Below, in pieces: positions 25,417 to 47,709 of a stretch of DNA of 64,000 nt. The notes under the pieces are model-generated. The model was not told the DNA's origin. It saw nothing but the letters and a program-made list of their open reading frames with translations, and did no database searches. Each line of letters starts with the position of its first letter. Positions within the stretch are counted from its first letter, which is position 1. The position numbers were made by a program, and so were the translations under genes. Origin of the DNA: Porphyromonadaceae bacterium (GTDB taxonomy: Bacteria > Bacteroidota > Bacteroidia > Bacteroidales > UBA12481); NCBI GenBank assembly GCA_007280905.1, contig QYQM01000001.1:37037-101036 (forward strand), read 5' to 3'.

Positions 25417-25417
25417 A

Positions 25418-26467: not shown

Positions 26468-26496
26468 AGCTGTTATTCAGATAGTTAGTTCGTGAA

Positions 26497-27489: not shown

Positions 27490-28457
27490 TTCTCTTCCTC
27501 CGTATTTGTCACCGGGTCGATTTCATCAACAGGTTTTCTGAGATTAACCACCGGTTTTGTCCGCAGAATAAAATCGTAGGCAGACTGCTGGCTGGCTTCA
27601 TGTTCCTCAGCAACAGGATACCACTTGGCAAATTTCACCAGATCAGCCAGTTCAAGTAGGGTTTTAAGCTCCTTGCGGATTCCTTCTTTAATGTGCCCGG
27701 CCTGGGTAAAGTCCCGGATAATATCCTCCGTGGTCTGTTCCATTGCAGGTACTTTAAACCTAAGCTCGATGTATTGACGGATAATATCGGTTAAGCGACT
27801 GTAATACAGCTTAATCTTTCCCTGTTGCCATAGTTTTTCCCTCACGAGTTCATCGAGTTGTTCCAAAGCCAGTAAATGTGCCGGAATTTGTGTGTGGGCG
27901 AGCTTTTCAACGATTTCGGACCCCTGCTTTTTCTTCCGCAAATACCTGATGTAAAGGATAATAATCGTGAGAAGCAATAACCCAACAATGATATAAGGCA
28001 GGATCTCGGTAAAAGTTACCTTGATTTCATAAGGAAGTTTTATATCGGTTATTCCTTTTGTCGTATCTACCGCCATTCCCAATACTTCCAGCGGCAATGC
28101 ACGTGTTTGAATGCTATCATGGTTATTATTAAAGCGAAAAGTGAATGGCGGAATAACATAAAACCCTGTATCAAAAGAGGTTACTACGAGTCTTTGTCTG
28201 ATCTTCCATATCCGGTTCATTTTACTGATAGTATCCGGTTTTGAAGCCGACAGCACTTCAATCTTCCCGGCAAGGGAATCTCCTGTAGCAGGAAAGTCAA
28301 TTCTTAATCCTTCAGGGTGCTCAAGCATGAACCATAAATTAACCTGGTCCCCAAGAAGTATCTTTGTGGTATCAAGCTTTGCATTTACTTTGATCTCCTG
28401 ACCAAAGGAGGGTAGTGCAAAAAGAAACAGTATGACGATGCTTAATCGGGATTTCAT
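27486..28457 (-). CDS. Bat-operon membrane protein of unknown function (BatD-like N-terminal domain, TM, helical tail)
   Basis: 323 aa with signal ...LPSFGQ, an ectodomain, a TM segment (ILPYIIVGLLLLTIIILYI) and a cytoplasmic tail. It has 4-nt overlaps with both neighbours. Confidence 0.6.
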   Translation of the reverse strand: MKSRLSIVILFLFALPSFGQEIKVNAKLDTTKILLGDQVNLWFMLEHPEGLRIDFPATGDSLAGKIEVLSASKPDTISKMNRIWKIRQRLVVTSFDTGFYVIPPFTFRFNNNHDSIQTRALPLEVLGMAVDTTKGITDIKLPYEIKVTFTEILPYIIVGLLLLTIIILYIRYLRKKKQGSEIVEKLAHTQIPAHLLALEQLDELVREKLWQQGKIKLYYSRLTDIIRQYIELRFKVPAMEQTTEDIIRDFTQAGHIKEGIRKELKTLLELADLVKFAKWYPVAEEHEASQQSAYDFILRTKPVVNLRKPVDEIDPVTNTEEEK

Positions 28458-29368
28458 TTCCGGCCTCTCTTTTTAAACAACCGGATTAACGGATTCACGT
28501 AATCCTGTGTAGTCAGCAGGCTGATGTAATCAATACCGCTCGAACGGAAAACTGCCTCCAGTTCAGTTTGAACTTTCTCCCACCATTTATCGTAATGCGA
28601 TCTGATTCTCCGGTTCGATGTATCAATCCAGGGGGATTCCAAAGTCTCCGGATCTGACATCCTGACCATCCCTATATCAGGCAACTGGCGTTCACCCGGA
28701 TCGGTGGTTTGTAATACGATCAGGTCATGCTTCCGGTTGGCAATCCGCAATCCCTCTCTTATTGCTGCAATTTCATCTAAGGATTGAATCATGAAATCTG
28801 AAATGACAAAGACGGTCGATTTTTTTTTGATGGCATGCGTAAAAAACCGCAGCGCCTCGGTAATATTAGTACCCCGGCTTACCGGTTTAAACTCAAGAAG
28901 TTCAAGAATAATGCGAAGGGTATGCTTTTTTCCTTTTTTTGGCGGTATGAATTTCTCAACCCGGTCAGAAAAAAAGATAACCCCGATCTTATCATTATTC
29001 TCAATGGCTGAAAATGCCAGTACTGCAGCCAGTTCAGTCATCAACTCCCGTTTCAGGCGATTTCGGGTACCAAATTCATTTGATCCCGAAACATCAACCA
29101 GGAGCATGACCGTTAACTCACGTTCTTCATCGAAAACTTTGATATAGGGCTTGTTAAACCGGGCTGTCACATTCCAATCGATGTTCCGGATCGGATCACC
29201 ATATTGATATTCACGGACTTCACTGAAGGTCATACCTTGTCCTTTGAAAGCACTATGGTATTGACCCGCAAAAACGTGCTGCGAAAGTCCGCGGGTCTTT
29301 ATCTCAATCCTTCTTACCTTATCTATGAGTTCTGCTGCAATCATTGATCCCCTATTGCCTGTGATCAA
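28454..29368 (-). CDS. DUF58 protein (vWA-like, MoxR partner)
   Basis: 304 aa. VREYQYGDPIRNIDWNVTARFNKPYIKVFDEERE is the DUF58 signature. Confidence 0.85.
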   Translation of the reverse strand: MITGNRGSMIAAELIDKVRRIEIKTRGLSQHVFAGQYHSAFKGQGMTFSEVREYQYGDPIRNIDWNVTARFNKPYIKVFDEERELTVMLLVDVSGSNEFGTRNRLKRELMTELAAVLAFSAIENNDKIGVIFFSDRVEKFIPPKKGKKHTLRIILELLEFKPVSRGTNITEALRFFTHAIKKKSTVFVISDFMIQSLDEIAAIREGLRIANRKHDLIVLQTTDPGERQLPDIGMVRMSDPETLESPWIDTSNRRIRSHYDKWWEKVQTELEAVFRSSGIDYISLLTTQDYVNPLIRLFKKRGRK

Positions 29369-30357
29369 GGGACTTCAACCTGATTTAGAATCCCTGTTAT
29401 AATATTGTCACTCTTAATGTCATCAGCTTCAGCTTCATAAGTGAGTCCGATACGATGCCTTAAAACATCATGGCACACTGTCCTGACGTCTTCCGGAACA
29501 ACGTATCCTCTGCGTTTTATAAAGGCAAAAGCTTTTGCTGCATAAGCAAGCGAGATGCTGGCCCTTGGACTTCCGCCAAACGAGATATAACGCTTATAAT
29601 CCGGCAGTTTATAATTGGCGGGTTCACGTGTGGCAAAAACGATATCCACAATATATTTTTCGATCTTTTCATCCATGTAAACCTCTTTTACCACTTCCCG
29701 TGCACGAAGAATGGCATCGGTCGATAAAACCTTGTTTGCCATAGGAAATTCTTTGGCCAGGTTTTGCCTCATGATAAGGGTTTCCTCTTCCTTATTCGGA
29801 TAATCGATAACCACCTTCAGCATAAACCGGTCAACCTGCGCTTCGGGAAGCGGGTAGGTACCTTCCAGTTCAATCGGGTTTTGAGTAGCCAGTACCAGAA
29901 ATGGTTCAGGTAAGGTATAACTATGTGTTCCGATGGTTACCTGCCTTTCCTGCATTGCCTCCAAAAGAGCGCTCTGAACCTTAGCCGGGGCCCTGTTGAT
30001 CTCGTCAGCCAGAATGAAATTGCTGAAAATCGGACCTTTCCTTACGACAAAATCTTCATTCTTCTGACTGTAAACCAAAGTACCGATCAGGTCAGCGGGC
30101 AAAAGATCAGGAGTAAATTGTATTCTCGAAAAATCAGCGTTTATCGTGCTCGCCAGCGTACGGATCGCCAGGGTTTTTGCTAATCCCGGCACCCCTTCCA
30201 ATAGCAGGTGCCCGTTCGAAAGCAGTCCGATTAATAAGCTATCGATCAGGTGTTTCTGACCAACAATCACCTTATTCATTTCAAGGGTGATCATTTCAAC
30301 AAATCCGCTTTCCTGCTGGATTTTTTCGTTAATCAGCCGGATGTCAATTGAATTCAT
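29365..30357 (-). CDS. MoxR-family AAA+ ATPase
   Basis: Walker A LLEGVPGLAKT, Walker B ILADEINRAP, and VLATQNPIE. I prefer the ATG at 30357 (MNSIDIR) over the GTG at 30369. Confidence 0.9.
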   Translation of the reverse strand: MNSIDIRLINEKIQQESGFVEMITLEMNKVIVGQKHLIDSLLIGLLSNGHLLLEGVPGLAKTLAIRTLASTINADFSRIQFTPDLLPADLIGTLVYSQKNEDFVVRKGPIFSNFILADEINRAPAKVQSALLEAMQERQVTIGTHSYTLPEPFLVLATQNPIELEGTYPLPEAQVDRFMLKVVIDYPNKEEETLIMRQNLAKEFPMANKVLSTDAILRAREVVKEVYMDEKIEKYIVDIVFATREPANYKLPDYKRYISFGGSPRASISLAYAAKAFAFIKRRGYVVPEDVRTVCHDVLRHRIGLTYEAEADDIKSDNIITGILNQVEVP

Positions 30358-30430
30358 ATTGTTTAGCACAGTTTTAACGGGCCGAAAATAGCAGAAACCA
30401 CTATTAATTTTTTGATATTTTTGTTAACGT

Positions 30431-34384: not shown

Positions 34385-36538
34385 TTAATTCCTCCATAAA
34401 TAACTGGCCTTAAAGAAGACTCCCCTGATGGTTTCCAGATAATCCGAACCTGGCTGGTATTCATGACCGTTCCAGGCCACCTTTTGATAAAGCGATCCAT
34501 ATCCGATATGCACAACTGTGCCAGGAATGTAGGTGAATGAAACAAGAAAGTCGGTTGACAGATCCTTTTCGTACGAGTTATATTCCACTATCCCGCGCAC
34601 AAAAAGTTTTGAGGTTAATTGAAAGGTGTTCCGGTTGCGAATGATCAGATAACTGAATTCCCTCACCGGGTTTTCAATTTGGTAAAAGTCGGAATAGTTT
34701 AAAATCAGATCCGACTGAAATTTTTTAAATGGCTGAAAATTAATGCTTAAACTAGCCGTTGTTCCCCAACCGGTATAGGGACCTTCAACATATCGGGTCC
34801 GGTATCCGAATTGATATTGAGTCTTTATCCTGAGGCTTTGAATCACTTGAGAACTGCCATTAAGATGAAAGGAATGAGTCCGGAAACGCTGGTTCAGGTA
34901 AACCTCATCCGATGGATTAAAAAAGAAACTGATCTGGGTGGAACGCTGACCACTAGCGGACATTCCGACTCCAAAATCACGCTCCCACAAACCCGAGCGG
35001 ATATCCTGATTCAGGAAACCGTAAAAATTTGGGGCAAGCTTTCGGAAAAAACCCTTATCGCGGTAAAAACTGTACGCAGCATACACAGTCATATTGTTAA
35101 TCCCCGACCTGAGCAGAAATCCGCTTTGAGTTATAAAACTCCCGCCAATATGCTGTATTTGAAAATCTCCGGATAACCGGTTGGTGTTTTTGGAAAGACT
35201 GACTGTTCCCATCCAATCGGTCTTTTTATTTGCCCCGGGGGCACTTACTGTACCAGAGCCTAAAGCATTAAATTTCAACGAGGTAGATGGATTGAGCCTC
35301 CATCGGCCATCAATTCCTCCAACCCGGTTGTAAATCCCGGACCCTTCCCTGTCGGTGGCTATAGCACCAATATAGGAATCATCATTAAACGAATGATGCA
35401 ACCTTCCGATGGCGTAATTAATAAAGGTATTTACGGAATCGCCGGCAGTGCCCTCAAATGGATCGTCCAGTGCATATAAAAAGCCAATCCGGTCATGATT
35501 GGTTATTTTTCCGGTAAGTTTGATACCGGCCAAAGGATTTATGATCTGACGGGTATGAAAAGCCTGCTGGAAGAAGCCCATCTCGCTCGTTGCGGCAATA
35601 TCAAAATTATCTTTTCCCTCTTGAAAAAAAGGCCGCTTTTCAGGGTAATACAGGGCATAGCGTTGATTTTCAGATATCTGCCCGGCATCTGATTCTACCT
35701 GGCTGAAATCAGGGTTTATGGCCATGTCCAGGATCAACTGGGAATTAATCCCGACAGTGCCTGTTAAACCTATAGACGGTTTATTAGCTGTAATGCCGAA
35801 AATTCCGTTTTCGTGCTGTTGTTTAAAGGAATAGGTCAGTGCCGGAAGCAGTTCAATCAGGGTATAATGTCTAATGCCGACAAAAGAGAAACCTTTGCCT
35901 TGAGTCAGAAAATTCATGCCTTGGTCAGGGTTTAGCGGCGGGTAGGTTGCTTGCTGGGATAACCGCTGAATCCTTCTTTCAAAAATAAACCCCATGGTAA
36001 CAGGTTCTTTTCTTTGGTATCTGAGACTTTTAAAGGGAATCTCGATTTCTACCTGATAACCATCGGGTTGGATTGAAGCTTTTGATTCGAAGACATAATC
36101 CGCTCCTAAATCCTCCTGATTGGAGGATGACCGGCCATCCATCTGGATTCCACGAGGATTAACATATATACAGATAAGACTTTGCTGATCAAAGAACGGA
36201 TCAAAATTAATACACACCCAATCTTCATTCTTGATCTGGTCCCGTGCTGTTATCGTAGCCTTGAGTTTATCCGGTTCAGGGTCTTTGCAATCGAATCCAA
36301 TATAAAGGTTTTCCTCATCATAAGTGATCATCGCAATGGTTGCAAATGCTGCCGGTGATCCAAAATCGGGCACATAAGATTTGAAATCAGAATAACGTGG
36401 AAGTGTTTTCCAGACTTCATCATCGAGCTTTCCATCAATTAAGGGTCGTCCGGAAGCTTTTGCTACCAGGATAGGATCCTGAGAGTAAAGAGCTGAAAAA
36501 CAAATGTTAAATCCCAGTACCAAGATCAAAAATCTCAT
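34385..36538 (-). CDS. CBM9-like / DUF5916-type outer-membrane protein
   Basis: Signal MRFLILVLGFNICFSALYSQD, then PLIDGKLDDEVWKTLPRYSDF...EENLYIGFDC (CBM9/DOMON-like), then a long beta-rich C-terminus. I prefer the start at 36538 over 36586. Confidence 0.7.
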   Translation of the reverse strand: MRFLILVLGFNICFSALYSQDPILVAKASGRPLIDGKLDDEVWKTLPRYSDFKSYVPDFGSPAAFATIAMITYDEENLYIGFDCKDPEPDKLKATITARDQIKNEDWVCINFDPFFDQQSLICIYVNPRGIQMDGRSSSNQEDLGADYVFESKASIQPDGYQVEIEIPFKSLRYQRKEPVTMGFIFERRIQRLSQQATYPPLNPDQGMNFLTQGKGFSFVGIRHYTLIELLPALTYSFKQQHENGIFGITANKPSIGLTGTVGINSQLILDMAINPDFSQVESDAGQISENQRYALYYPEKRPFFQEGKDNFDIAATSEMGFFQQAFHTRQIINPLAGIKLTGKITNHDRIGFLYALDDPFEGTAGDSVNTFINYAIGRLHHSFNDDSYIGAIATDREGSGIYNRVGGIDGRWRLNPSTSLKFNALGSGTVSAPGANKKTDWMGTVSLSKNTNRLSGDFQIQHIGGSFITQSGFLLRSGINNMTVYAAYSFYRDKGFFRKLAPNFYGFLNQDIRSGLWERDFGVGMSASGQRSTQISFFFNPSDEVYLNQRFRTHSFHLNGSSQVIQSLRIKTQYQFGYRTRYVEGPYTGWGTTASLSINFQPFKKFQSDLILNYSDFYQIENPVREFSYLIIRNRNTFQLTSKLFVRGIVEYNSYEKDLSTDFLVSFTYIPGTVVHIGYGSLYQKVAWNGHEYQPGSDYLETIRGVFFKASYLWRN

Positions 36539-36560
36539 TGGCCATGCAATAATTGTATAA

Positions 36561-37448
36561 TTATATAAAAAAGAGTGCAACACCACAAACCGCTATCAAG
36601 GAGCCAAGGATTTCCCTCCAGGTGACTTTTTCTTTCAGCAGGATTATGGCAGGAGGAATCAACAAGACCGGTACCAGGGCCATGATTGTACTTGCAATTC
36701 CGGTGGTTGTATATTTTATGGCCATCAGTGAAAAGGAGACACCCAGAAATGGACCCAAAAACGATCCGGCAGAAACAAAACCTAAAGTTGAGGGCTGGTT
36801 AAAAGCCGGTTTCAGGAGCGACCACTTATTTAAGATCGTAAAGAGCAGGACAAAACCAATGGTTCCTGAAATCACTCTGATTTGCGATGAGGTAAACGGA
36901 TCGGCATTGCGCATCCCGAATTTGCTAAATACCAATCCGATAGCTTGACCCGCCGCCGCACCCAACCCAAATAGCAGGCCTTTAGCCGAATAATGGAAGT
37001 TGAATTTGTTGCCCGGACGACGAAGGACAACGATAATGATCCCGAACAGGGTAATAGACATTCCGAGTAACCCGCGAAGTGATAACTTTTCTCCAACGAT
37101 CATCCAGCCAAACAGGGCAGCCAGTGGGGGAGCCAATGCCATCAGAAGGTTGGCTATCCGCGATCCGATTAGTGCATAAGCGGAGAACAGGCAATAGTCG
37201 CCCAGGACAAACCCGATGATCCCGCTAACAGACAGCCAGACCCACCCATGAAGGTCGATATCAGTAGGAAACAGGTGTCCGTTGCGGATGATTGACAATA
37301 AACAGTAGAATACAAGGGCCAGGCTTAACCTGAGGATATTTACTGCCAGAGAGCCAATGCTTTTTGCTGCCTGTTCAAAAGACAAAGCTGTAACAGTCCA
37401 TAAAACAGCGGTAACCAGTGCAGCAAATTCTCCGGTATGATTTCCCAT
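36561..37448 (-). CDS. EamA/DMT-family transporter
   Basis: 295 aa, about 10 TM helices, in two EamA-like halves. Confidence 0.8.
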   Translation of the reverse strand: MGNHTGEFAALVTAVLWTVTALSFEQAAKSIGSLAVNILRLSLALVFYCLLSIIRNGHLFPTDIDLHGWVWLSVSGIIGFVLGDYCLFSAYALIGSRIANLLMALAPPLAALFGWMIVGEKLSLRGLLGMSITLFGIIIVVLRRPGNKFNFHYSAKGLLFGLGAAAGQAIGLVFSKFGMRNADPFTSSQIRVISGTIGFVLLFTILNKWSLLKPAFNQPSTLGFVSAGSFLGPFLGVSFSLMAIKYTTTGIASTIMALVPVLLIPPAIILLKEKVTWREILGSLIAVCGVALFFI

Positions 37449-38912: not shown

Positions 38913-39151
38913 CAATACTGATTTTTAAAGAATTAGAACAAGGGATTAGATACTGCAATATGCTAAAAAAAGATCAACCGAACACAGTAGATACTTTTTT
39001 TTTTAAGGAAAAATCGCATCCGATTTATAGTCAGCCAGATAATTTTAATTTCAATTTCCAGAAAAATTAATAATCAGAAAATCAGTCAATTACGTTTAAT
39101 AATCTGACTGTTAGATCAATCAACGCAAGGGAGAGATCTTCCGTGAAGCCT

Positions 39152-40405
39152 TTATATGGCTAACCGTGTCCATTTCCCGCTAACCCAGGTAAAAACACCC
39201 GCTGAGGGATTCTGTTTGCGTATTTTATCAAGCTTCCTCAGGCAAGGCTCAATATGCTGGTTTTGGTAAGTATAATAGTAAAAAAGAGATCCAACCTGAA
39301 TGTATTGCATGGCTGTATGGCCTTTTAGAGCTGGATCATCCGGTGCAAGAGGGGTTGGACTTTGAAGCAGACAGATATAATAATCTGATGTACCTTCGCC
39401 TGCAAGCACCCGCGCAAGTTCAGAATCATTTGTGGTGTAAACTGATTTGCTTTTGTCGGACAGAGTAACCCGTACATATTTCCCCGGATGTATCCTGACA
39501 TCTTCAATCAGTCGGTTCAGACTGGCATTCGTAGCCAAAATCGCATAGTAGAGGGAGTCATTAATGATGAGTTTTCCAAGAGTGCCTTCACCGGCAGATA
39601 TCTTTTGAGTCAGTTGATGCAGGTTGTCGAGAACCTTGCGAAAGGAGGTAAGTGTTGCCATCAGCGGAACGTTGGTCAAAGTATCGCTGAATCGTTTCAT
39701 GTTGCTCACAAAATCCTGCAATTCGCCTGTCTTTTTAAGAAGGCCAACGCTCAGGGTATCCACTCTGCCAAGGACAGAGGTTATTTTTTTGGACTCTTCT
39801 TTTACATATTCATTCAAAAACCGGGAAGCAGATTCGAGATTATTCAATGTTTGATTGACACTGGAAAAGCTTTCGGTGAGATTGTTGCGGTTACGTTCAC
39901 TAAAAACCAACTGAATACCCATCAGAACAGAATCCATTGACGACATAAGCGATTCAGCTTTTAACTTTAAGGGAAGCATCTGGGCGTTAACCTCATCGCG
40001 AAGATCCCCCTCTATTGAACTGTTCAGTGTATCGTTTGGATTACAAAGTGACGGATTAGCTGTCAGATCCAGTGCGATTCCTTTGGTTCCCATTATGTCA
40101 ATGCTGTATATCCTTGCTGATGAGCCTTTTGGAATTTTGATCGATTTGTAGGAAATAGAGAATTTAACCTCGATGAGACCAGGTTTCTTTTCCGACAACT
40201 GAATAAATCGAACCTGTCCAACCGTGAATCCGTTAATGGTAACCGGATTGGATTTCGCCAAGCCTCCGATTTTTTCATATAAAGCGTAAAATGACCTCTC
40301 AGAGCTGAATAAATTCTTGCCTTTGAGGTAATTAAGCCCCCAAAAAACAACCACTATGGTGGCCAGGAATAGGATAGCCACCCTTATATAAGTCCTGCTT
40401 TTCAT
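39152..40405 (-). CDS. MlaD/MCE-family protein with SPOR-like C-terminal extension
   Basis: N-terminal TM plus MCE domain (KSNPVTINGFTVGQVRFIQL), a helical middle region, and a last ~75 aa that aligns without gaps to the C-terminus of the adjacent amidase. I prefer the start at MKSRTYI (40405). Confidence 0.75.
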   Translation of the reverse strand: MKSRTYIRVAILFLATIVVVFWGLNYLKGKNLFSSERSFYALYEKIGGLAKSNPVTINGFTVGQVRFIQLSEKKPGLIEVKFSISYKSIKIPKGSSARIYSIDIMGTKGIALDLTANPSLCNPNDTLNSSIEGDLRDEVNAQMLPLKLKAESLMSSMDSVLMGIQLVFSERNRNNLTESFSSVNQTLNNLESASRFLNEYVKEESKKITSVLGRVDTLSVGLLKKTGELQDFVSNMKRFSDTLTNVPLMATLTSFRKVLDNLHQLTQKISAGEGTLGKLIINDSLYYAILATNASLNRLIEDVRIHPGKYVRVTLSDKSKSVYTTNDSELARVLAGEGTSDYYICLLQSPTPLAPDDPALKGHTAMQYIQVGSLFYYYTYQNQHIEPCLRKLDKIRKQNPSAGVFTWVSGKWTRLAI

Positions 40406-40418
40406 AACGCTTTTGTAA

Positions 40419-41675
40419 TTAATTTTTCCTCTGGTCAATATTAGTATTCAGCGGAACCCTCTTCCCATTTTTAAAAGCAACAATAAAGGCTCCGCGAAAG
40501 GAGGCACCCAGTTTTTGCCTTAATTCAAGCGCTTCCTGGTAGGTGTTAACCGATTGAGACATATATTTATAATAACCATCTAATTTTATTTCCTTAAGGT
40601 CCTTAACCCCTTTGAAATCCTTGGCATCCGGCGACAATTTTTTCACCGATGCTAAAATTTGAACCCGGTATTCGATTTCAGATTCCAAGCTGAATCTTGA
40701 AATGGTGTCAATCGGATTCGACGTAACTTTTTCCTGTTCTTTTCCTTTCTTCTCGTTTTCTCCCGTCTTCTTAACGGTCTCTATCGTCTTCTTATCGTCT
40801 TCTGCATTGGGAATCGCAGTTTTAGCAAGAACGCTGACCTTTTCATCGATCGATTCTTTATATCCCCGGAATGCTATATATATTGCTGAGGCAATAATAT
40901 CCTGTCCATCGCCTGTCATCAGAAACGCCTCCTCCTGGGGGTTGGAAATAAAACCGGCCTCAACCAGAACACTTGGATTGGCACAACCCCATAATACCAC
41001 CAGGTTACCCTGATGCACACCGATATCCTTACGCTGCCCCCGTGTTCTTAATTGGTCCTGAACCGCAGCAGCGATTTCCAGACTTTGAGTTAAGTTGTTG
41101 TTTTGTACATTATTAAATATAATGTATGATTCCGGGGATGTGGGATCAAAACCCGCATATTTTGTTTGATAATCTTTCTCAAGTAGAATGGCTTTGTTTT
41201 CCTGCATTACCAGATCTAGGTTTTCTGCACTTCTCGAAAACCCCATAACATAGGTTGAAGTACCGGTTGGTGTACTTTTTTTGTTGGCATTGACATGGAT
41301 AGAGATAAACACATCAGATTTGTTCCGGTTGGCTATCTGAGCCCTTTCATATAGCGGAATAAAAACATCGGTTTTGCGGGTATAATATACATCGACATCG
41401 TCCATCAGGCTTTCAATGTAGTGACCTAACTTTAACGCAATTCCGAGAGCAATATTTTTCTCGACCGATTTCTTTCCGGGTGCTCCGGTATCGTGTCCGC
41501 CATGACCGGCATCGATAGTAACCGTAAATTTCTTTCCGGCAGAAGACTGAGCAGATGCAGGCAGGTTATCTATACTAATTAGAAGGACAATGATGATTAA
41601 AAAAGTCACCGGCCGAAACCACCTAATACAATGGTTTCTCTGTTTATCCGTTATGACTCTTAGGTTACTGGGCAT
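40419..41675 (-). CDS. N-acetylmuramoyl-L-alanine amidase (Amidase_3) with C-terminal SPOR domain
   Basis: IDAGHGGHDTGAPG, ISIHVNA and VLVEAGFISN, plus a C-terminal YRVQILASVKKLSPDAKDFKG...GAFIVAFKNGKRV SPOR-type repeat. Confidence 0.88.
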   Translation of the reverse strand: MPSNLRVITDKQRNHCIRWFRPVTFLIIIVLLISIDNLPASAQSSAGKKFTVTIDAGHGGHDTGAPGKKSVEKNIALGIALKLGHYIESLMDDVDVYYTRKTDVFIPLYERAQIANRNKSDVFISIHVNANKKSTPTGTSTYVMGFSRSAENLDLVMQENKAILLEKDYQTKYAGFDPTSPESYIIFNNVQNNNLTQSLEIAAAVQDQLRTRGQRKDIGVHQGNLVVLWGCANPSVLVEAGFISNPQEEAFLMTGDGQDIIASAIYIAFRGYKESIDEKVSVLAKTAIPNAEDDKKTIETVKKTGENEKKGKEQEKVTSNPIDTISRFSLESEIEYRVQILASVKKLSPDAKDFKGVKDLKEIKLDGYYKYMSQSVNTYQEALELRQKLGASFRGAFIVAFKNGKRVPLNTNIDQRKN

Positions 41676-41736: not shown

Positions 41737-44340
41737 TTGATATCGCTTATAAAAATACAAAAATTTCAATTAGGGATATTTATCCTTGCCGTTGGCATGC
41801 TAAAAGCATACGGTCAGGCTGATTCAGTACCTGTCCGTCTGGTAAAACCCGATACTATACGTCAGGTAGTCGCCAAAGGAAAAGCTTACCTCGATTCTCC
41901 AGTGATATACCCCGCTAAAGATTCAACCGTGATCAGCCTGTCGGAAAAGAAAATCCGGATGTACGGTCAGGCTAAGATCACTTACCAGAAAATGGAGATC
42001 ACAGCTGATTATATCGAGATGAGTATCGACCGTAAAGAGATTTACGCTACTGGCCGTAAGGACAGCATCGGACAACTCGCTGGAACCCCTGTAATTAAAG
42101 AAGAGAAAGAGACTTTCGAAACCAAGGAGTTTCGGTTTAATTTCGATACAAAAAAGGCATTCTTAGTTGATGTCAGGATGAAGCAAGAGCCTGAGGGTTT
42201 TATTCACAGCCATTATACCAAAAGAGATTCTACGGGAACCCTTAATATCAGGAATGGAAAATACACCACCTGTGATGCACCTGAACCCCATTTTTACTTT
42301 TTTATCACTAAGGGAATGATGGTTCCGGATAAGATGATCGTGACCGGTCCGCTTTACCTGGTTGCGGAAGGGGTCCCCTTGTATCCGATTGGTTTGCCAT
42401 TTGGATTTCTCCCGAAGCAGCAGAAAAGAGCCTCAGGCATTCTGATGCCCAAATATGGAGAGGAGCGTAACCGCGGCTTCTTTCTTCGGGACGGGGGATA
42501 CTATTTTGCAATTAACGACAGAATGGATCTTTCTCTTACAGGGGGGATTTATTCCCGTGGAAGCTGGCAGTTGGGTGCACAATCGAGGTATAAGAAAATA
42601 TACAAATACTCGGGTAACCTCGGATTTAATATTGCCAATAATATAATGGGGGAGAAGGATTTACCGGGATACTCAAAGAAAAAGGATTTTAGTGTTTCCT
42701 GGTCACATGCCCAGGATCCAAAAGCTAATCCCTACAATGATTTCAATGCCAGCGTAAATTTCAGTTCCAGTTCGTACGACAGGAATAACACTTATACTGA
42801 TAATACTAACCGGTTACAGAATCCGCTGGAACATCTGACCAATCAGAAATCTTCGTCGGTTTCCTATAGGAGGAAATTCAGGAATCCGCTGTTCAATTTC
42901 ACAGCAAAGGTTGGCCATTCGCAGAACAGTATAGACCGGTCGGTAGTGCTGAATGCTCCTTCCGGTTCCTTCACAGTTGGCCGGTTATACCCATTCAAAT
43001 GGGCTTCGAGCGGCGGCCGGCAGAAATGGTACGAAAAAATCGAGATGCGATACACTTCCTCTTTCGAAAATAAGGTTAAAGCGCGCGAAGACTCTATTTT
43101 CATGCCTGACATTTTCAGCAAAATACGCAATGGATTCCAGCATGAGATCCCCTTGTCGGCATCCTTCAAACCGATGCAGAACATGACCTTCACCCCATCG
43201 CTCAACTATCAGGGGATGCTCTATTTTTCCCATATCGGAAAAACATGGGATCCTGTACTGGACAGTATTATCATCAATCGAATCAATCAGTTGCAATATG
43301 TCCAGGCTTTGAGCCCGAATTTTAACCTGAGTTATACTCCGAGACTCTATGGATTTTATGAATTCAAATGGAGCAGGATCAAGACCATCCGACATGTCAT
43401 GAGCCCATCAATTTCTTTTGGTTACCGCCCCGATTTGGGCTATGATTTCGGTAAATTCCAGCGGACATTGGTTACGTTGGATAAGAATGCACAAGGTCAA
43501 ACAATAACCAATTTGCAGTCCTATTCGATTTTCGATGAGGGAATATACAGGCTTCCTTCAGTGGCAGGCCGGTATGGGAATATAAGTTTCAGTTTGGGTA
43601 ACAACCTGGAAATGAAGGTAAAAAATCCATCGGATACCACCGGTCAGTTGAAAAAGGTAAAACTACTGGAGAGCCTCAGCATTAGTACTTCCTATGACAT
43701 TTTCAGGGACTCCCTGAATTTGTCGCCGATCCAGCTTCAGGCGCGCACTATGATCATGGGACAGTTTAACCTGTCATTCCGATCTGTTTTTAATGCTTAT
43801 GCCATCGATTCTACCATTAAATACGGGCGGACTACCTACAGGACCATCAATTCTTTTGAAGTCACAAAAACCGGAAAACTAATGCGTTTAACCGATGCCG
43901 ACTTCTCTTTAGGTTTTACCCTCCCTCTTAAATCACAGCAGAAGGGTGGGAGCCAGGCTCAGCCAAAATCGAAACCCCTTGATTATGAATCAGATGGTCA
44001 GGTAGATTTTAAATCCGATTGGAATCTGAGACTCGACTACAATTTCCGGTACACCAAGCCTTATCTGGTAAGTACCATTACGCAGTCACTTCGGTTAACA
44101 GGGGATCTTTCTCTAACAAAAAAATGGAAGATCAGTTTTTCCTCAGGATATGATTTTGAACATAAGCAATTTACTTACACTTCACTGGGAATTCACCGGG
44201 ATTTACACTGCTGGCAGATGAACATTGATGTTGTCCCGTTTGGCGAACGCAAAAGCTATACTTTTACCATCAGTGCTAATGGTTCTTTGCTAAAAGATAT
44301 CAAATATCAAAAATTTAAAGACTGGAGAGATCAATACTAA
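41737..44340 (+). CDS. lptD: LPS-assembly protein LptD-like (OstA-family) outer-membrane protein
   Basis: 867 aa with an N-terminal OstA-like region (IRMYGQAKITYQKMEITADYIEMSIDRKEIYATG) followed by a very large beta-barrel. TTG start is uncertain. Confidence 0.7.
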   Translation: MISLIKIQKFQLGIFILAVGMLKAYGQADSVPVRLVKPDTIRQVVAKGKAYLDSPVIYPAKDSTVISLSEKKIRMYGQAKITYQKMEITADYIEMSIDRKEIYATGRKDSIGQLAGTPVIKEEKETFETKEFRFNFDTKKAFLVDVRMKQEPEGFIHSHYTKRDSTGTLNIRNGKYTTCDAPEPHFYFFITKGMMVPDKMIVTGPLYLVAEGVPLYPIGLPFGFLPKQQKRASGILMPKYGEERNRGFFLRDGGYYFAINDRMDLSLTGGIYSRGSWQLGAQSRYKKIYKYSGNLGFNIANNIMGEKDLPGYSKKKDFSVSWSHAQDPKANPYNDFNASVNFSSSSYDRNNTYTDNTNRLQNPLEHLTNQKSSSVSYRRKFRNPLFNFTAKVGHSQNSIDRSVVLNAPSGSFTVGRLYPFKWASSGGRQKWYEKIEMRYTSSFENKVKAREDSIFMPDIFSKIRNGFQHEIPLSASFKPMQNMTFTPSLNYQGMLYFSHIGKTWDPVLDSIIINRINQLQYVQALSPNFNLSYTPRLYGFYEFKWSRIKTIRHVMSPSISFGYRPDLGYDFGKFQRTLVTLDKNAQGQTITNLQSYSIFDEGIYRLPSVAGRYGNISFSLGNNLEMKVKNPSDTTGQLKKVKLLESLSISTSYDIFRDSLNLSPIQLQARTMIMGQFNLSFRSVFNAYAIDSTIKYGRTTYRTINSFEVTKTGKLMRLTDADFSLGFTLPLKSQQKGGSQAQPKSKPLDYESDGQVDFKSDWNLRLDYNFRYTKPYLVSTITQSLRLTGDLSLTKKWKISFSSGYDFEHKQFTYTSLGIHRDLHCWQMNIDVVPFGERKSYTFTISANGSLLKDIKYQKFKDWRDQY

Positions 44341-44361: not shown

Positions 44362-44748
44362 ATGAAAAAAGTAATTACAACACGTTATGCACCTGCCGCA
44401 ATCGGGCCATACAGCCAGGCTATCGAAACAGGGGATTTAGTTTTTATTTCGGGTCAGATACCGATTGTTCCCGAAACAGGTAAACTCCTGGAAGGGGATA
44501 TCAGGGTGCAAACCGAACAGGTGATGAAAAACATTGGAGCCATTCTGGCTGCCGCAGGGCTGCAGTTCGGGAATGTGGTGAAATGCACCTGTTTCCTTGC
44601 TGACATCGGCGATTTCAAAGAGATGAATGAAGTTTATGGAAGCTATTTCACTTCCGAGCCACCGGCAAGGGCAACCTTCCAGGTTGCTAAAATTCCTATG
44701 GGGTCGAAAGTTGAGATTGATGCAATAGCTACAAAAAAAATAGAGTAG
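44362..44748 (+). CDS. ridA: RidA (YjgF/YER057c) reactive-intermediate deaminase
   Basis: 128 aa with PAAIGPYSQA, FISGQIP and PARATFQVAKIPMGSKVEI. Confidence 0.92.
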   Translation: MKKVITTRYAPAAIGPYSQAIETGDLVFISGQIPIVPETGKLLEGDIRVQTEQVMKNIGAILAAAGLQFGNVVKCTCFLADIGDFKEMNEVYGSYFTSEPPARATFQVAKIPMGSKVEIDAIATKKIE

Positions 44749-44760
44749 GGAGCTATGCCC

Positions 44761-44802
44761 AAAAAAAGAAAGTAGACAACTTTTCCTTAAGTTGTCTACT
44801 TT
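44761..44802 (-). terminator. Intrinsic terminator of the rpsF-rpsR-rplI operon (also faces ridA)
   Basis: 12-bp perfect stem AGTAGACAACTT / AAGTTGTCTACT with loop TTCCTT. On the - strand it is followed by TTCTTTTTTT. Confidence 0.8.
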
Positions 44803-44819
44803 CCAGCATCGGCGATGCG

Positions 44820-45266
44820 TTACTCTGAGTAAACCTCAAAGTTGATTTCAGCCTTGATGTCTTTATAGATCTTAACAGTAGCCTTGAAGGTTCCGATTTC
44901 TTTGATCGCATTTTCACTCATCGTGATGTTCTTGCGATCGACATCAAATCCTTTCTCGATAAGGGCTTCAGCAATCTGAAGCGTGTTCACCGAACCGAAT
45001 ATTTTTCCAGTGGTTGATGTTTTTGCCCCGATCTTCAGTTCAACGGTTCCGAGTTTAGCAGCAATTGCCAAAGCATCGGAGCGTTTCTTCTGTTCCTTAT
45101 GTGCACGCTGACGCATATTTTCGGCATGCATTTTCTTTGCAGATTCAGTAGCCAGCATAGCAAAACCCTGAGGAATCAGATAATTCCGGCCGTAGCCATT
45201 GCGGACTTTAATCACATCGTCCTTATGACCCAGGTTGGTCAAATCCTGTAACAAAATTATTTCCAT
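44820..45266 (-). CDS. rplI: 50S ribosomal protein L9
   Basis: 148 aa, MEIILLQDLTNLGHKDDVIKVRNGYGRNYLIPQG. Confidence 0.95.
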   Translation of the reverse strand: MEIILLQDLTNLGHKDDVIKVRNGYGRNYLIPQGFAMLATESAKKMHAENMRQRAHKEQKKRSDALAIAAKLGTVELKIGAKTSTTGKIFGSVNTLQIAEALIEKGFDVDRKNITMSENAIKEIGTFKATVKIYKDIKAEINFEVYSE

Positions 45267-45282
45267 GACTTACCTCCGGTTA

Positions 45283-45552
45283 TTATTTCATCATATCGGT
45301 TACATACGGCAGGATGGCAATATGCCGGGCCCGCTTAACTGCCTGAGCAATTTTTCTCTGGAATTTCAGGGAGGTACCGGTTAAACGGCGAGGAAGAATT
45401 TTTCCCTGTTCATTAAGAAACTTCTTGAGGAAGTTGGGATCTTTATAATCAATGTACTTGATTTTGTTCCTTTTAAAACGGCAATACTTTTTCCGCTTCA
45501 CATCAACTGTGGGCGGTGTAAGATACCTGATTTCTGATTGACTGGTTGCCAT
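45283..45552 (-). CDS. rpsR: 30S ribosomal protein S18
   Basis: 89 aa, [18 protein letters not shown]...[28 protein letters not shown]. Confidence 0.95.
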
Positions 45553-45555
45553 AAC

Positions 45556-45918
45556 TTACCCCTCCTTTTTTTCGCGGGTTGGTTCATTACCTGCCAATCT
45601 ACGGCGTTTCAGGTTGTACTCAACTGCAAATTTGTCGAGCCTTACTGAAAGAAAGCGGATGATCCTCTCATCACGACGAAACTCCACCTCGAGGCGGTTA
45701 ATTAGTTCTCCACCGGATTTGAACTCAATAAGATGGTAAAAACCCGTCGATTTCTTTTGAATCGGGTATGCCAGCTTACGGAGGCCCCAGTTGTCCTCAT
45801 GCATAATCTCCCCGCCATTTTCGGCAAGGTAACCAGAGAACTTTTTAACCGTTTCCTTCATCTGTTCTTCAGACAAAACGGGAGTTACAATGAAAACGGT
45901 TTCGTACTGATTCATCAT
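45556..45918 (-). CDS. rpsF: 30S ribosomal protein S6
   Basis: 120 aa, [18 protein letters not shown]...[10 protein letters not shown]. Confidence 0.95.
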
Positions 45919-45955
45919 GTGTTATTAATAATTAATAAATCTCATTATTGGGCTG

Positions 45956-45963
45956 CAAAGTTA
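45956..45963 (-). promoter_or_regulatory. Bacteroidota -7 promoter box for rpsF operon
   Basis: Reverse strand reads TAACTTTG (TAnnTTTG), about 38 nt upstream of the rpsF start. Confidence 0.4.
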
Positions 45964-46033
45964 GAAATTATTCTGATTACTGCAAGGGTTTTGCCTATCA
46001 CAAAATGAGGCGCAAATTTATGCATCTTATTTT

Positions 46034-46041
46034 TACTTTTG
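46034..46041 (+). promoter_or_regulatory. Bacteroidota -7 promoter box for dnaX
   Basis: TACTTTTG, 22 nt before the ATG at 46063. Confidence 0.4.
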
Positions 46042-46062
46042 CATAGCTCAATACCGCCAGAA

Positions 46063-47709
46063 ATGGAAAAACAATTTATCGTCAGTGCCCGTAAATATCG
46101 ACCAGATAGTTTTGAAACTGTTATTGGCCAGCCTTCGATTACCCGTACCCTCAAGAATGCTATTGCAGGCAACCATCTGGCCCATGCATACCTGTTCACT
46201 GGTCCGAGGGGGGTGGGAAAGACTACCTGTGCGAGAATTTTTGCGAAGACCATCAACTGTAGCAATCTGACTTCTGATACAGAAGCCTGCAATGTATGCG
46301 AGGCCTGTCTTACTTTCCAGGAGAGCCGGTCATTTAATATTCATGAACTCGATGCAGCTTCCAACAACCATGTCGAGGATATTCGTAATCTGATTGAACA
46401 GGTGAGAATCCCTCCCCAGATGGGTAAGTACAGCGTTTATATTATTGATGAGGTTCACATGCTCTCACAGGCAGCTTTCAATGCCTTCCTGAAAACACTG
46501 GAGGAGCCTCCCGCTCACGCAATATTTATTCTGGCCACCACGGAAAAACACAAAATTCTGCCAACCATTTTATCACGCTGCCAGGTTTTTGATTTCCACA
46601 GAATCCAGATCCGGGATATAATTGCTCAATTACAGCGTATTGCCGATAAGGAAGGCATTGCTACCGAAAATTCTGCCCTGAATATCATTGCTCAGAAAGC
46701 AGATGGTGCAATGAGGGACGCCCTTTCGATTTTTGATCAGGTAGTCAGTTTTTGCGGTACCGAGGTCACCTATCAACAGGTAATAGATCATTTGAATGTT
46801 CTCGATTACGAATACTATTTTCAGCTGACTGAACTGTTTCTTGCCGGTGAATTTAAGCAGGCACTCCTGGTTTTTAACCGCATTCTGGAAGAAGGTTTTG
46901 ATGGACACAATTTTATTTCCGGACTTTCTACTCATTTCAGAGACCTATTAGTTAGCAGAGATCCTCAAACAATTGAATTACTAGAAGTTGGAGAAGAAAT
47001 TGGCAGAAGGTATCAGCAAATGTCATCTTCGTGTTCAATAAACTTCCTGTATGAGGGATTGAAGATATTGAATGGCTGCGATTTATCCTTTAAGCAGGCT
47101 AAAGATCCGCGATTAATGGTGGAACTGGCTTTGATGAGTTTAGCCAGGATCCAGGAAATGCCGGCAGAAACGCCGAAACCCGCTATAAAACCTGCCATTC
47201 AACCGCAATCTCAGCAAGTTCCTCCACGCAGCCCGAAAGGGCAAATGACCCGGCTCAGTGACTTGCAACCAAGGAAACTAGTTCCAACTGAGATTTCTGC
47301 CACCATCCCAGTACCCCCGGAACTTAAGAAAGAACAAAAGGAACCTGATGAACTTACCGGTACGCTTCTGAAATCTTACTGGATGGAGTTCGCAGAACAG
47401 CTGAAAGACGATCAGCCGAGGTTATACAGCACCCTGACTACTCAAATACCAGATCTTTCTCCGGACAAGAAGATCATATTGAAATTAAATAATCCTTTAC
47501 AGGAGAAGGCAATCCGGAGTATTCAAACAGAATTGCTGCAATTTCTCCGGGACCGGTCGGGCCATAGTGATCTTGAAATACAGACAGCTGTTCCTGAGGA
47601 GCATGCTGAAAAAAAGCTCTACACCCAGGAGGAAAAATACCAACATCTGCAAAAGAAAAACCCGGATCTTGATCTTTTTCGGCAATCTTTGAATCTGGAA
47701 TTGGAATAG
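46063..47709 (+). CDS. dnaX: DNA polymerase III subunit gamma/tau
   Basis: MEKQFIVSARKYRPDSFETVIGQ, GPRGVGKTTCARIFAK, the Zn module CNVCEAC, and IIDEVHMLS. I prefer the ATG at 46063 over the TTG at 46039. Confidence 0.93.
   Translation: MEKQFIVSARKYRPDSFETVIGQPSITRTLKNAIAGNHLAHAYLFTGPRGVGKTTCARIFAKTINCSNLTSDTEACNVCEACLTFQESRSFNIHELDAASNNHVEDIRNLIEQVRIPPQMGKYSVYIIDEVHMLSQAAFNAFLKTLEEPPAHAIFILATTEKHKILPTILSRCQVFDFHRIQIRDIIAQLQRIADKEGIATENSALNIIAQKADGAMRDALSIFDQVVSFCGTEVTYQQVIDHLNVLDYEYYFQLTELFLAGEFKQALLVFNRILEEGFDGHNFISGLSTHFRDLLVSRDPQTIELLEVGEEIGRRYQQMSSSCSINFLYEGLKILNGCDLSFKQAKDPRLMVELALMSLARIQEMPAETPKPAIKPAIQPQSQQVPPRSPKGQMTRLSDLQPRKLVPTEISATIPVPPELKKEQKEPDELTGTLLKSYWMEFAEQLKDDQPRLYSTLTTQIPDLSPDKKIILKLNNPLQEKAIRSIQTELLQFLRDRSGHSDLEIQTAVPEEHAEKKLYTQEEKYQHLQKKNPDLDLFRQSLNLELE

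Follow-up and report, generated by a model that had tools for sequence, protein, structure and literature searches.

A C-terminal domain of probable SPOR ancestry on an MCE lipid-transport protein encoded beside a peptidoglycan amidase in Bacteroidota

Organisation of the locus

Two adjacent minus-strand genes, one for an N-acetylmuramoyl-L-alanine amidase and the other for a protein of the MCE/MlaD family, lie divergent from an lptD-like gene in the window, the term used here for the whole 64-kb stretch of DNA that was analysed (Table 1). The initial annotation had placed the two genes 13 nt apart and divergent from the lptD-like gene, and the ORF coordinates agree. The listed ORF of the MCE gene is longer than the version counted from the ATG and reaches a TTG at position 40438. 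The product of the divergent gene matches LptD_2 (PF19838) over model positions 1-464 of 464 in Pfam (509.7 bits, E 9e-153). The amidase and MCE genes are likely to be co-transcribed because the spacer is short, the genes are adjacent in related loci and a terminator scan found no convincing terminator between them. Scans for sigma-70 promoters and terminators and for DnaA boxes returned nothing beyond chance.

No ORF of 150 aa or longer in the 64-kb window encodes an ABC ATPase, defined by a Walker A and an LSGG motif in the same ORF. A scan of ten ORFs, five with the size expected of MlaE or MlaF and five others, placed all of them in other families and found neither MlaE nor MlaF; the genes for these partners may lie in another part of the genome.

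Table 1. Genes and domains of the amidase-MCE locus (positions are those of the window)
Feature	Coordinates	Strand	Remarks
MCE/MlaD-family gene	39152..40405	-	417 aa + stop, counted from ATG; ORF table
N-terminal hydrophobic membrane anchor, YIRVAILFLATIVVVFWGLNYLK	40325..40393	-	about residues 5-27; read from translation
MCE (MlaD) domain	40067..40294	-	residues 38-113; Pfam PF02470, 46.9 bits (cut-off 25.1), E 3.3e-12
Helical region	39473..40048	-	about residues 120-311; precomputed PF28544; closes with conserved P-x-K-Y-V motif; limits approximate
Linker	39386..39472	-	residues 312-340 (tail positions 1-29); AlphaFold pLDDT 38-59 over tail positions 1-30
C-terminal domain, probably SPOR-derived	39155..39385	-	residues 341-417 (tail positions 30-106); AlphaFold pLDDT 80-91
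Spacer, amidase stop to MCE ATG	40406..40418	-	13 nt
Amidase gene (N-acetylmuramoyl-L-alanine amidase)	40419..41675	-	418 aa; signal/anchor sequence, Amidase_3, C-terminal SPOR-type domain
Amidase_3 catalytic domain	40875..41522	-	residues 52-267; Pfam PF01520, 156 bits, E 1.3e-45
Amidase C-terminal SPOR-type domain	40455..40676	-	residues 334-407; AlphaFold pLDDT 85.6
LptD-like outer-membrane gene	41737..44340	+	867 aa; divergent, 61 nt from amidase start
dnaA	37482..38915	-	next gene downstream of MCE gene; context, outside the module

Domain architecture of the two proteins

The MCE protein belongs to the MCE/MlaD family (PF02470), with an MCE domain behind an N-terminal membrane anchor. 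Its closest solved relative in a search of the PDB is MlaD (E 6e-6), and the alignment of residues 7-115 with MlaD residues 8-117 places the anchor in agreement with the MlaD anchor region. The protein has no equivalog-level identity to MlaD, PqiB or mycobacterial Mce, since its NCBIfam scores fall far under the respective cut-offs (MlaD 48 against 135, Mtu_fam_mce 61.8 against 140.5, PqiB 9.5 against 525); the NCBIfam MCE model likewise matches the MCE domain only beneath its cut-off. The PqiB and Leptospira Mce models of NCBIfam give weak matches at residues 225-299. For P0001, a database protein of 417 aa identical to the window MCE protein, the precomputed domains are PF28542 (DUF8434), PF02470 and PF28544 (Helical_needle), the last of which is also assigned to all full-length homologues. 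Where the tail sits relative to the membranes hinges on the fold of the helical region of about 190 residues. Among NCBIfam models the amidase scores best with AmiA, AmiC, CwlD and AmiB, each under its equivalog cut-off.

Distribution, tail classes and gene order

MCE proteins of the window type (417 aa, here class A) form 70 clusters that extend down to 42% identity and carry the full 106-aa tail. Tailed MCE proteins are widespread, with about 70 class-A clusters alongside other types in Bacteroidales and Marinilabiliales. The initial reading would have been refuted by an extension confined to this genome, but the tail is present across the 70 clusters and in other MCE types. The idea that the tail is a decaying remnant was rejected on the full length of the tail in the 70 clusters, in which Pro89 and Trp101 are invariant. 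Two further types, class B (about 430 aa) and a Draconibacterium type (about 420 aa), are orthologous MCE proteins that carry a homologous tail in the corresponding place and share the gene neighbourhood. Class B differs from the window class in having a Lys-rich linker and in keeping the Gln and Lys of canonical SPOR domains, and looks canonical; the window class is the most diverged of the tail classes, about 17% identical to all others.

The amidase-MCE pair is divergent from lptD in 21 of 25 related loci, including loci of Chlorobiota, and the same order is present in a class-B locus as well as where the MCE protein has no tail. As judged by tblastn, dnaA matches the downstream gene with 74-99% identity in 14 related loci and with 48% in one more (L022); one class-B locus has ligA rather than dnaA downstream. 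The divergent arrangement of the pair is thus conserved, while the proposal of a coordinated septal module at this locus is conjecture.

Homology of the MCE tail to the amidase tail

The reported gap-free alignment of the last 75 or so residues of the MCE protein with the C-terminus of the amidase, with 16 identities, was confirmed: the two quoted 75-residue segments align ungapped, with 31 positions positive and BLOSUM62 scores that add up to +49. Shuffling 100,000 times gave a mean alignment score of -73 (sd 17.5), which places the real score at z = 7; a fraction of 1e-5 of the shuffles had at least 16 identities, and none attained the real score. BLASTP between the two window tails gives E = 1e-5 across the first 45 residues. 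Comparisons of MCE tails with amidase tails by hhalign, run against two independent alignments, gave 97.1-97.2% (E 4e-11 to 7e-11) over 76-78 ungapped columns, in the same register as the pairwise alignment, and the window-class MCE tails matched the other MCE tail class at 97.3%. Used as a tblastn query, the window amidase tail retrieved the MCE tails of Draconibacterium and Prolixibacteraceae (E 1e-7 to 1e-11). Mean identity to amidase tails is 17% for the window-class MCE tails and 31% (up to 45%) for the intermediate tails that orthologous MCE proteins carry in the same place, and MCE and amidase tails have fold-core residues in common. Taken at the level of sequence, these comparisons indicate that the C-terminal 77 or so residues of the MCE protein are homologous to the C-terminal domain of the amidase. 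The possibility that one of the neighbouring genes was recently copied from, or converted by, the other was considered and rejected: the window MCE tail is 21% identical to the tail of its own amidase and up to 23.5% identical to those of others, and four other loci are alike in this respect.

Relationship of both tails to SPOR domains

Pfam SPOR (PF05036; gathering score 21 bits) has no match in the window MCE tail or in the window amidase tail by hmmscan, even with the isolated tails scanned to E <= 10, and no SPOR match was obtained for the full-length proteins and isolated tails against Pfam and NCBIfam. The model found none of 36 class-A MCE tails and one of 15 class-B tails (E 0.033), and precomputed PF05036 is absent from 120 MCE homologues and from the 120 closest homologues of the window amidase. 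The expectation that hmmscan would reveal a SPOR domain at both C-termini thus fails for the two window proteins, although some orthologous tails and some matches of the MCE-tail profile do score above the cut-off. Eight of the 20 tails in alignment A3, which holds 17 amidase tails and 3 MCE tails, match Pfam SPOR at E <= 10, two amidase tails exceeding the cut-off with 22.1 and 22.0 bits.

A connection with SPOR comes from a profile of MCE tails (A1), which was searched against 1.84 billion proteins and returned only 21 matches with E no higher than 1e-3. Once MCE proteins and three repeat proteins are left out, the matches are Bacteroidota YxVQIxAS domains, and the profile finds SPOR-type domains in the same register with E 1e-5 to 1e-3. 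Four of the matched proteins pass Pfam SPOR themselves (P0247 with 26.2 bits, P0252 with 42.2, P0253 with 25.7 and P0255 with 30.4); in P0247 the profile match at residues 21-96 (E 1.2e-5) coincides with Pfam SPOR at residues 26-91. The strongest non-MCE matches, P0244-P0246, were set aside as compositional because they match in multiple stretches and two of them carry type IX secretion sorting domains. Comparison of the tails by hhalign with the E. coli SPOR domains of FtsN, DamX, DedD and RlpA was not significant (2-6%), with the right register for the amidase tails; in our judgement a profile of only four sequences, and such distant ones, cannot decide the matter. When tail alignments A1, A2, A3 and A5 were used for HMM searches of PDB sequences, no SPOR chains emerged, only noise such as YdfO, the Rubisco small subunit and antibodies. 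By profile search, then, the MCE tail is detectably homologous to validated SPOR domains.

The reference SPOR fold is RNP-like, with the order beta-alpha-beta-beta-alpha-beta. AlphaFold models of the MCE tail and the amidase tail have the same order of elements (b1, loop, b2, b3, helix, b4, b5), with helix 1 of SPOR replaced by a loop or a single turn in both. The beta-alpha-beta-beta repeat that had been read into the amidase segment is not borne out by these models. The top Foldseek match of the amidase-tail model in the PDB is the SPOR domain of CwlC (1x60; prob 1.00, TM 0.63/0.69, rmsd 3.0, 28% identity), with the FtsN and RlpA SPOR domains also among its matches, and the window amidase tail retains both hallmark residues, Gln within YRVQ and Lys within YYKY. 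The amidase tail combines a predicted SPOR fold, with helix 1 only a turn, with the hallmark residues, and a SPOR relationship of its domain family is supported. For the MCE-tail model the best Foldseek E-value against the PDB is 0.1, that of CwlC is 1.2 and none is significant; the highest TM-score is again that of the CwlC SPOR domain (0.46/0.59), with many ferredoxin-like folds scoring alike. As modelled, the MCE tail shares the topology of the amidase tail, that of a SPOR domain without helix 1.

The low mean identity to amidase tails, the lack of a Pfam SPOR match and a Foldseek result shared with many ferredoxin-like folds would also be expected if the tail were an unrelated small alpha/beta domain that resembles SPOR by chance or convergence and had been wrongly labelled. 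We consider this highly improbable in view of the hhalign result (97%, E about 1e-11, in two independent alignments), the recovery of SPOR-type domains in the same register from 1.84e9 proteins, the intermediate orthologous tails and the shared fold-core residues. The similarity of the MCE and amidase tails to SPOR reflects homology, and the MCE tail is SPOR-derived.

The ligand face of the MCE tails

SPOR domains recognise their ligand largely through main-chain contacts of the fold, and where side chains take part in solved SPOR complexes, they are those of a conserved Gln and a basic patch (PMC6895207). FtsN Q251, S254, W283, R285 and I313 are required for septal localisation, which is lowered when the residues of FtsN or DamX that correspond to this Gln and basic patch are mutated (PMC6895207). 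Ligand-facing positions in the tails were assigned by alignment to FtsN and RlpA, with FtsN Q251, DamX Q351 and RlpA Q270 as references for the Gln site and FtsN R285 and RlpA R302/R309/R311 for the basic patch.

In this alignment the window MCE tail has Cys345 at the Gln site and Tyr376 at the basic site, and the strand-1 Gln and the basic patch of the sheet are absent from it as from the 70 class-A tails. The strand-1 Gln is present in 125 of 125 amidase tails and 15 of 16 class-B MCE tails, and is replaced in the 70 class-A tails by Cys (62), Val (7) or Ser (1). Likewise, the strand-3 basic site holds Lys or Arg in all 125 amidase and all 16 class-B tails, against Tyr (61), Phe (7) or His (2) in class A, where a strand-1 Arg/Lys site has also become Tyr (60) or Phe (8). 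Further class-A changes are the replacement of a strand-4 Phe by Gly and the appearance of Phe, Tyr or Trp at neighbouring positions, so that the predicted ligand face reads Y, C, L / L, Y, Y / G, F/Y, W; Trp101 is invariant, Trp96 nearly so, and the fold-determining Tyr31, Tyr66, Pro89 and Ala91 are retained. Tails of the Draconibacterium type have His and Thr, Asn or Ser at the Gln and basic sites, and Gln and Lys are also lost in most MCE-linked tails of other lineages and never in amidase-linked ones. A disulfide between Cys345 and Cys388 was rejected on the independent variation of both Cys among class-A sequences. The residue patterns describe the class-A tail as a conserved, SPOR-derived domain with a predicted aromatic and uncharged face.

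These substitutions bear directly on the initial suggestion that the tail tethers a lipid transporter to the division septum through denuded glycan. A working SPOR domain that reads the denuded septal peptidoglycan made by the amidase would fit the homology of the tail to a SPOR-type domain, the conserved synteny and co-transcription with an AmiA/B/C-like amidase, the maker of the SPOR ligand. It is important to point out that recognition by SPOR domains is mostly a main-chain affair (PMC6895207), and that class-B tails keep the Gln and Lys, which means that the ancestral fusion may have worked in this way. Yet the only conserved SPOR side-chain contacts are missing in 70 of 70 class-A tails, FtsN and DamX localise less to the septum once the equivalents are mutated (PMC6895207), denuded glycan has lactyl carboxylates that call for a basic patch, of which two positions are Tyr here, and Pfam SPOR does not match the window tail or 36 class-A tails. 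Septal tethering through denuded glycan is unsupported because the Gln and basic contact residues are replaced in every class-A MCE tail, while every amidase tail keeps them, and on these sequence patterns the window MCE tail is unlikely to be a canonical reader of septal glycan. Its class-B relatives, with their Lys-rich linkers and retained Gln and Lys, would by analogy be better candidates for true peptidoglycan tethering beside the amidase that produces the ligand.

The nearly all-aromatic and hydrophobic character of the predicted face could alternatively mean that the SPOR-derived sheet has become a hydrophobic surface of the lipid path or of the oligomer. In this view the six tails at the end of a hexameric needle would either make up a cap or portal or lie packed against the needle, and they would handle lipid or dock a partner in the outer membrane, not the wall. 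The position of the domain after the Pfam Helical_needle would suit such a role, as would the invariant Trp101 and nearly invariant Trp96 and the loss of Gln and Lys in most MCE-linked tails elsewhere but never in amidase-linked ones. A precedent exists in the long MlaD of Veillonella with its C-terminal beta-barrel (PMC10665443). Aromatic platforms are typical of sugar-binding sites too, and the canonical face of class-B tails means that not every MCE tail fits, which leaves this alternative rather unlikely.

Proposed function

The explanation that we favour, with a probability of about 0.6, is that the tail is a functional domain, derived from SPOR but re-purposed, whose face is aromatic and uncharged and which would act as a docking module rather than as a canonical reader of septal glycan. 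The protein would be anchored in the inner membrane, resemble MlaD, take part in lipid trafficking and possess a long helical needle, and its last 77 or so residues would be a copy, since diverged, of the SPOR-type domain with which the co-transcribed amidase binds peptidoglycan. Placed after the needle, this domain could dock the transporter at its periplasmic end, either to a protein or to a feature of the wall other than the canonical denuded-glycan epitope. Aromatic faces can bind sugars by CH/pi contacts, and the tail may bind the wall through its aromatic face.

A broader scenario, which we put forward tentatively and regard as doubtful on balance, is that the SPOR-type domains linked to MCE proteins constitute a branch of their own within the SPOR superfamily, one that has been re-purposed. 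The amidase domain would have been copied to the needle tip and, in most lineages and in all 70 members of the window class, its Gln and basic residues exchanged for Cys and aromatic residues, creating a hydrophobic platform that caps or extends the lipid conduit or docks an outer-membrane or wall partner.

Comparison with known systems and outlook

Like the SPOR domains of CwlC, FtsN, DamX, DedD and RlpA, the two window domains are small alpha/beta domains, putatively RNP-like, at the C-termini of periplasmic or envelope proteins, and B. subtilis CwlC, the top structural match of the amidase tail, likewise combines an amidase with a SPOR domain. Unlike known SPOR domains, both lack helix 1 in the models and are unmatched by Pfam, and the MCE copy has its Gln and basic residues replaced in all 70 members of its class (Cys and Tyr in the window). 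With MlaD, PqiB, LetB and mycobacterial Mce the window protein shares an N-terminal anchor, an MCE domain and a helical extension, and it has weak matches to solved MlaD and Mce1 chains; it differs in having just one MCE domain, after which come about 190 helical residues and then an additional globular domain, and in the pairing of its gene with an amidase gene in a 64-kb window that holds no ABC ATPase gene. The long MlaD of Veillonella parvula has a long helical region and a C-terminal beta-barrel and is proposed to span the periplasm; the barrel is reported to be absent from Bacteroidetes/Chlorobi MlaD proteins (PMC10665443). It resembles the window protein as an elongated helical MCE protein with an added C-terminal domain, although that domain is an outer-membrane beta-barrel rather than, as here, a soluble putative SPOR derivative. 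No description of an MCE protein with a SPOR domain was found in the literature searched.

The current Pfam SPOR model overlooks a large Bacteroidota branch of the family. Within this branch, the retention of SPOR ligand residues in amidase-linked copies and their loss in most MCE-linked ones offer a clean and testable case of re-purposing, for which the amidase, class-B and class-A tails are natural experimental controls. Phospholipid movement between the membranes of Bacteroidota is poorly understood, and long-needle MCE proteins are candidate bridges; the gene described here is paired with one for a cell-separation-type amidase and lies close to lptD. If a needle of this kind ends in a domain of the wall-binding type, MCE lipid transport would for the first time be connected directly, at the level of sequence, with the peptidoglycan layer or the division site, and if the broader scenario is true, phospholipid trafficking in Bacteroidota would be physically coupled to the amidase/LptD envelope neighbourhood.

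Gene organization and protein architecture

The components of the locus are familiar: the MCE/MlaD family, the Amidase_3 family, the SPOR superfamily and amidase–SPOR fusions such as CwlC are already known. Pfam assigns MlaD to residues 38–113 of the MCE protein (46.9 bits), Amidase_3 to residues 52–267 of the amidase (156 bits) and LptD_2 to the product of the divergent gene (509.7 bits). By domain, the MCE protein is a member of the MCE family; in NCBIfam its kinship with MlaD, mycobacterial Mce and PqiB is loose, and the amidase falls near AmiA, AmiC, AmiB and CwlD, with every score below the equivalog cut-off. The precomputed Pfam annotation of an identical database protein adds PF28542 (DUF8434) and PF28544 (Helical_needle) to the MCE protein, so that its predicted order is membrane anchor, MCE domain, helical region of ~190 residues, linker of ~30 residues and globular tail of ~77 residues. 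Chain I of PDB entry 13hr, a 312-aa 'Mce/MlaD domain-containing protein', matches residues 34–228 (E = 6e-4), reaching the helical region, and could show how such a needle is built. A mechanical ORF list places the MCE start further upstream, at TTG 40438; the ATG is adopted because of the identical 417-aa protein and ~70 full-length homologues.

Features of the window (window positions)
Feature	Position	Strand	Remarks
ORF run	22086-30369	-	same-strand run with two TPR proteins, one with C-terminal SH3_3
TPR protein	22086-22853	-	
TPR protein	24679-25437	-	
CBM9-like/DUF5916 gene	34385-36586	-	733 aa, CBM9-like domain then DUF5916; overlaps ORF of EamA transporter gene by ~26 nt
dnaA	37482-38915	-	directly downstream of MCE gene; 236-nt spacer 38916-39151
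MCE gene	39152..40405	-	417 aa counted from ATG
Amidase gene	40419..41675	-	418 aa from ATG 41675; MCE gene next after 13 nt
Ambiguous amidase start	41610-41675	-	identical protein P0121 called 22 residues shorter, which would stretch the spacer to lptD from 61 to ~127 nt
lptD-like gene	41737..44340	+	divergent; 61 nt from amidase start
Genes around lptD	44362-47709		RidA-family gene, ribosomal protein genes rpsF-rpsR-rplI (-), dnaX-like gene; named from translations only

Synteny of the amidase–MCE pair, divergent from lptD, holds in 21 of 25 related loci, drawn from Bacteroidales, Marinilabiliales, Flavobacteriales and one Chlorobiota MAG. Since the order is kept even with tailless MCE proteins, the gene trio is old and independent of the tail. 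Among the ORFs of at least 150 aa in the 64-kb window, none combines a Walker A motif with an ABC signature, and no candidate MlaE or MlaF emerged from the ORFs tested; the membrane partners of the transporter may therefore be encoded elsewhere.

The position of dnaA directly after the MCE gene is kept in 15 related loci, and a class-B locus (see below) retains the lptD–amidase–MCE order with ligA in place of dnaA. No part of the window shows a DnaA-box cluster (19 one-mismatch matches versus 18.9 expected). Cumulative GC skew peaks near 22 kb, declines to its minimum near 46–48 kb and climbs again, giving two turning points within one window, neither of them at dnaA. Judged from the part of its ORFs that was scanned, the run at the left of the window may be a Bat-like aerotolerance operon.

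Distribution of tailed MCE proteins

Relatives of the MCE protein gathered by homology search fall into three classes, to which genome contigs add a fourth type. Class-A proteins have 417 aa and the 106-residue tail of the window protein (~70 clusters, identity down to 42%), class-B proteins (~430 aa) have a Lys-rich linker and the tail motif YKIQIKSS...RYKYTVG...FPDAFVVAF, and class-C proteins (310–360 aa) lack any domain beyond the needle; the fourth type (~420 aa) comes from Draconibacterium and Prolixibacteraceae. With ~70 class-A clusters plus class B and the Draconibacterium type, tailed MCE proteins extend well beyond a single genome. Uncultured Bacteroidales MAGs provide the nearest relatives, with the best match in MAG contig JBBAAF010000027.1 of 'Bacteroidales bacterium isolate SO_2017_GW3_35' (locus L001; MCE protein 89% and DnaA 99% identical). 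Class-B and class-C homologues (e.g. P0105, P0089, P0120) carry long poly-Lys stretches after the needle, such as KKEKKEKKKKKKKKNK, which form either a linker ahead of a SPOR-type tail or the C-terminus itself.

Homology of the MCE and amidase tails

The initial annotation had noted that the last ~75 residues of the MCE protein can be aligned gap-free with the amidase C-terminus, and had related both to SPOR domains. The similarity is borne out: over 75 ungapped residues (16 identities, 31 positives) the BLOSUM62 sum is +49, against a mean of -73 for shuffled sequences (z = 7), and 16 identities are reached by one in 100,000 shuffles. BLASTP gives E = 1e-5 across the first 45 residues. Profile–profile comparison of the class-A tails yields a probability of 97.3% with class-B tails, 97.1% (E = 7e-11) with mixed amidase tails of related loci and 97.2% (E = 3.6e-11) with a set of 45 amidase tails, both amidase comparisons covering 76–78 ungapped columns in the register first proposed. 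In tblastn, the window amidase tail matches MCE tails directly in six loci of the Draconibacterium type (E = 1e-7 to 1e-11). On these sequence comparisons, the two tails are homologous.

Class-B and Draconibacterium-type MCE tails share ~31% identity with amidase tails (best pairs near 45%), and class-A tails ~17% with every other group. Plausibly, the tail arose when the 3′ domain of the amidase gene was copied onto the adjacent gene. Recent copying between neighbours is ruled out, as the MCE tail is no closer to the tail of its own amidase than to other amidase tails.

A divergent branch of the SPOR superfamily

The direct Pfam test of the SPOR assignment failed: neither window tail matches SPOR even at E <= 10, and precomputed PF05036 is found in 0 of 120 MCE and 0 of 120 amidase homologues. 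PDB sequence-profile searches with the tail alignments and comparison of the tail profiles with four E. coli SPOR domains gave nothing significant.

The relationship itself nevertheless holds, and emerges from related tails, a library-wide profile search and predicted structures. Among 20 related tails (17 amidase, 3 MCE), eight match Pfam SPOR at E <= 10, and two of the amidase tails score above the gathering threshold (22.1 and 22.0 bits versus 21). The class-A profile finds just 21 matches at E <= 1e-3 among 1.84 billion proteins: MCE proteins, either of class A or with divergent tails, three proteins rich in repeats, and YxVQIxAS domains of Bacteroidota. Within this last group, P0247 (26.2 bits), P0252 (42.2), P0253 (25.7) and P0255 (30.4) pass Pfam SPOR. 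In P0247 the class-A and Pfam SPOR matches span the same residues, with 'YYvCllqs' aligned to 'YYVQILAS'. The amidase-tail model (pLDDT 85.6) has the CwlC SPOR domain (1x60) as its best Foldseek PDB match (probability 1.00, TM 0.63/0.69, rmsd 3.0 A, 28% identity), with FtsN and RlpA SPOR domains also among its matches. The MCE-tail model (pLDDT 80–91 over the domain) has the same element order and its highest TM-score with CwlC SPOR (0.46/0.59), none of its Foldseek matches being statistically significant; in both models SPOR helix 1 is missing, shrunk to a loop or single turn. We therefore assign both tails to the SPOR superfamily, in a divergent Bacteroidota branch that is largely missed by the Pfam model.

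This branch is found in several architectures: in P0252 (742 aa), four or more SPOR-type copies alternate with CarboxypepD_reg/SdrD_B-like domains, and P0253 and P0255 are amidases, each with two tandem copies.

Loss of the canonical ligand residues

In crystal structures of RlpA SPOR with glycan, side-chain contacts to denuded glycan come only from the conserved Gln (Q270) and from a basic patch, and septal localization needs Q251, S254, W283, R285 and I313 in FtsN and Q351, S354 and W416 in DamX (PMC6895207). A census of 215 aligned tails shows how these sites have fared.

Residues at two ligand sites in the aligned tails
Site	Amidase (125)	Class-B MCE (16)	Draconibacterium-type MCE (4)	Class-A MCE (70)
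Gln site	Q 125	Q 15, H 1	H 4	C 62, V 7, S 1
Basic site (FtsN R285)	K/R 125	K 16	T/N/S	Y 61, F 7, H 2

In class A, the strand-1 Arg/Lys site has also become Tyr or Phe, and the strand-4 Phe (equivalent to FtsN I313) Gly or Ala, with Phe/Tyr and Trp at adjoining positions. Six more divergent MCE tails from the profile search likewise lack the Gln and Lys. Tyr31, Tyr66, Pro89 and Ala91 (tail numbering), expected residues of the fold core, are common to class-A and amidase tails; an invariant Trp101 and near-invariant Trp96 are class A's own. The class-A tail is thus conserved and presumably functional, with a predicted ligand face that is uncharged and aromatic, its residues assigned by alignment to FtsN and RlpA rather than from model coordinates.

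The initial annotation had proposed that the tail tethers lipid transport to the division septum. Binding of denuded glycan in the canonical manner is unlikely for class A, because the Gln and basic residues are replaced in 70 of 70 tails; the MCE proteins of class B retain the canonical residues and would be better candidates for such a tether. We rather favour the tail as a docking module, placed at the transporter's periplasmic end, whose partner in class A would be another wall feature or a protein. The MCE protein is likely co-transcribed with the SPOR-bearing amidase. Less likely, the tail would contribute a hydrophobic cap or portal to the hexamer. By homology the MCE tail is a relative of the SPOR superfamily; by function it is not a demonstrated member of the SPOR family, because two defining features that were tested are absent.

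Relation to known systems and significance

In the literature searched, an MCE and a SPOR-type domain were not found in one protein, the two terms occurring together only in a general review, and current Pfam annotation does not reveal the combination. Conceptually closest is the long MlaD of Veillonella, which differs in that its added C-terminal domain is a beta-barrel; Bacteroidetes and Chlorobi are reported to lack that barrel (PMC10665443). With a SPOR-derived domain at the end of an MCE needle protein, the locus would offer above all a testable link, in Bacteroidota, between lipid transport and the cell wall or division machinery, and also a clear natural example of a re-purposed SPOR domain.
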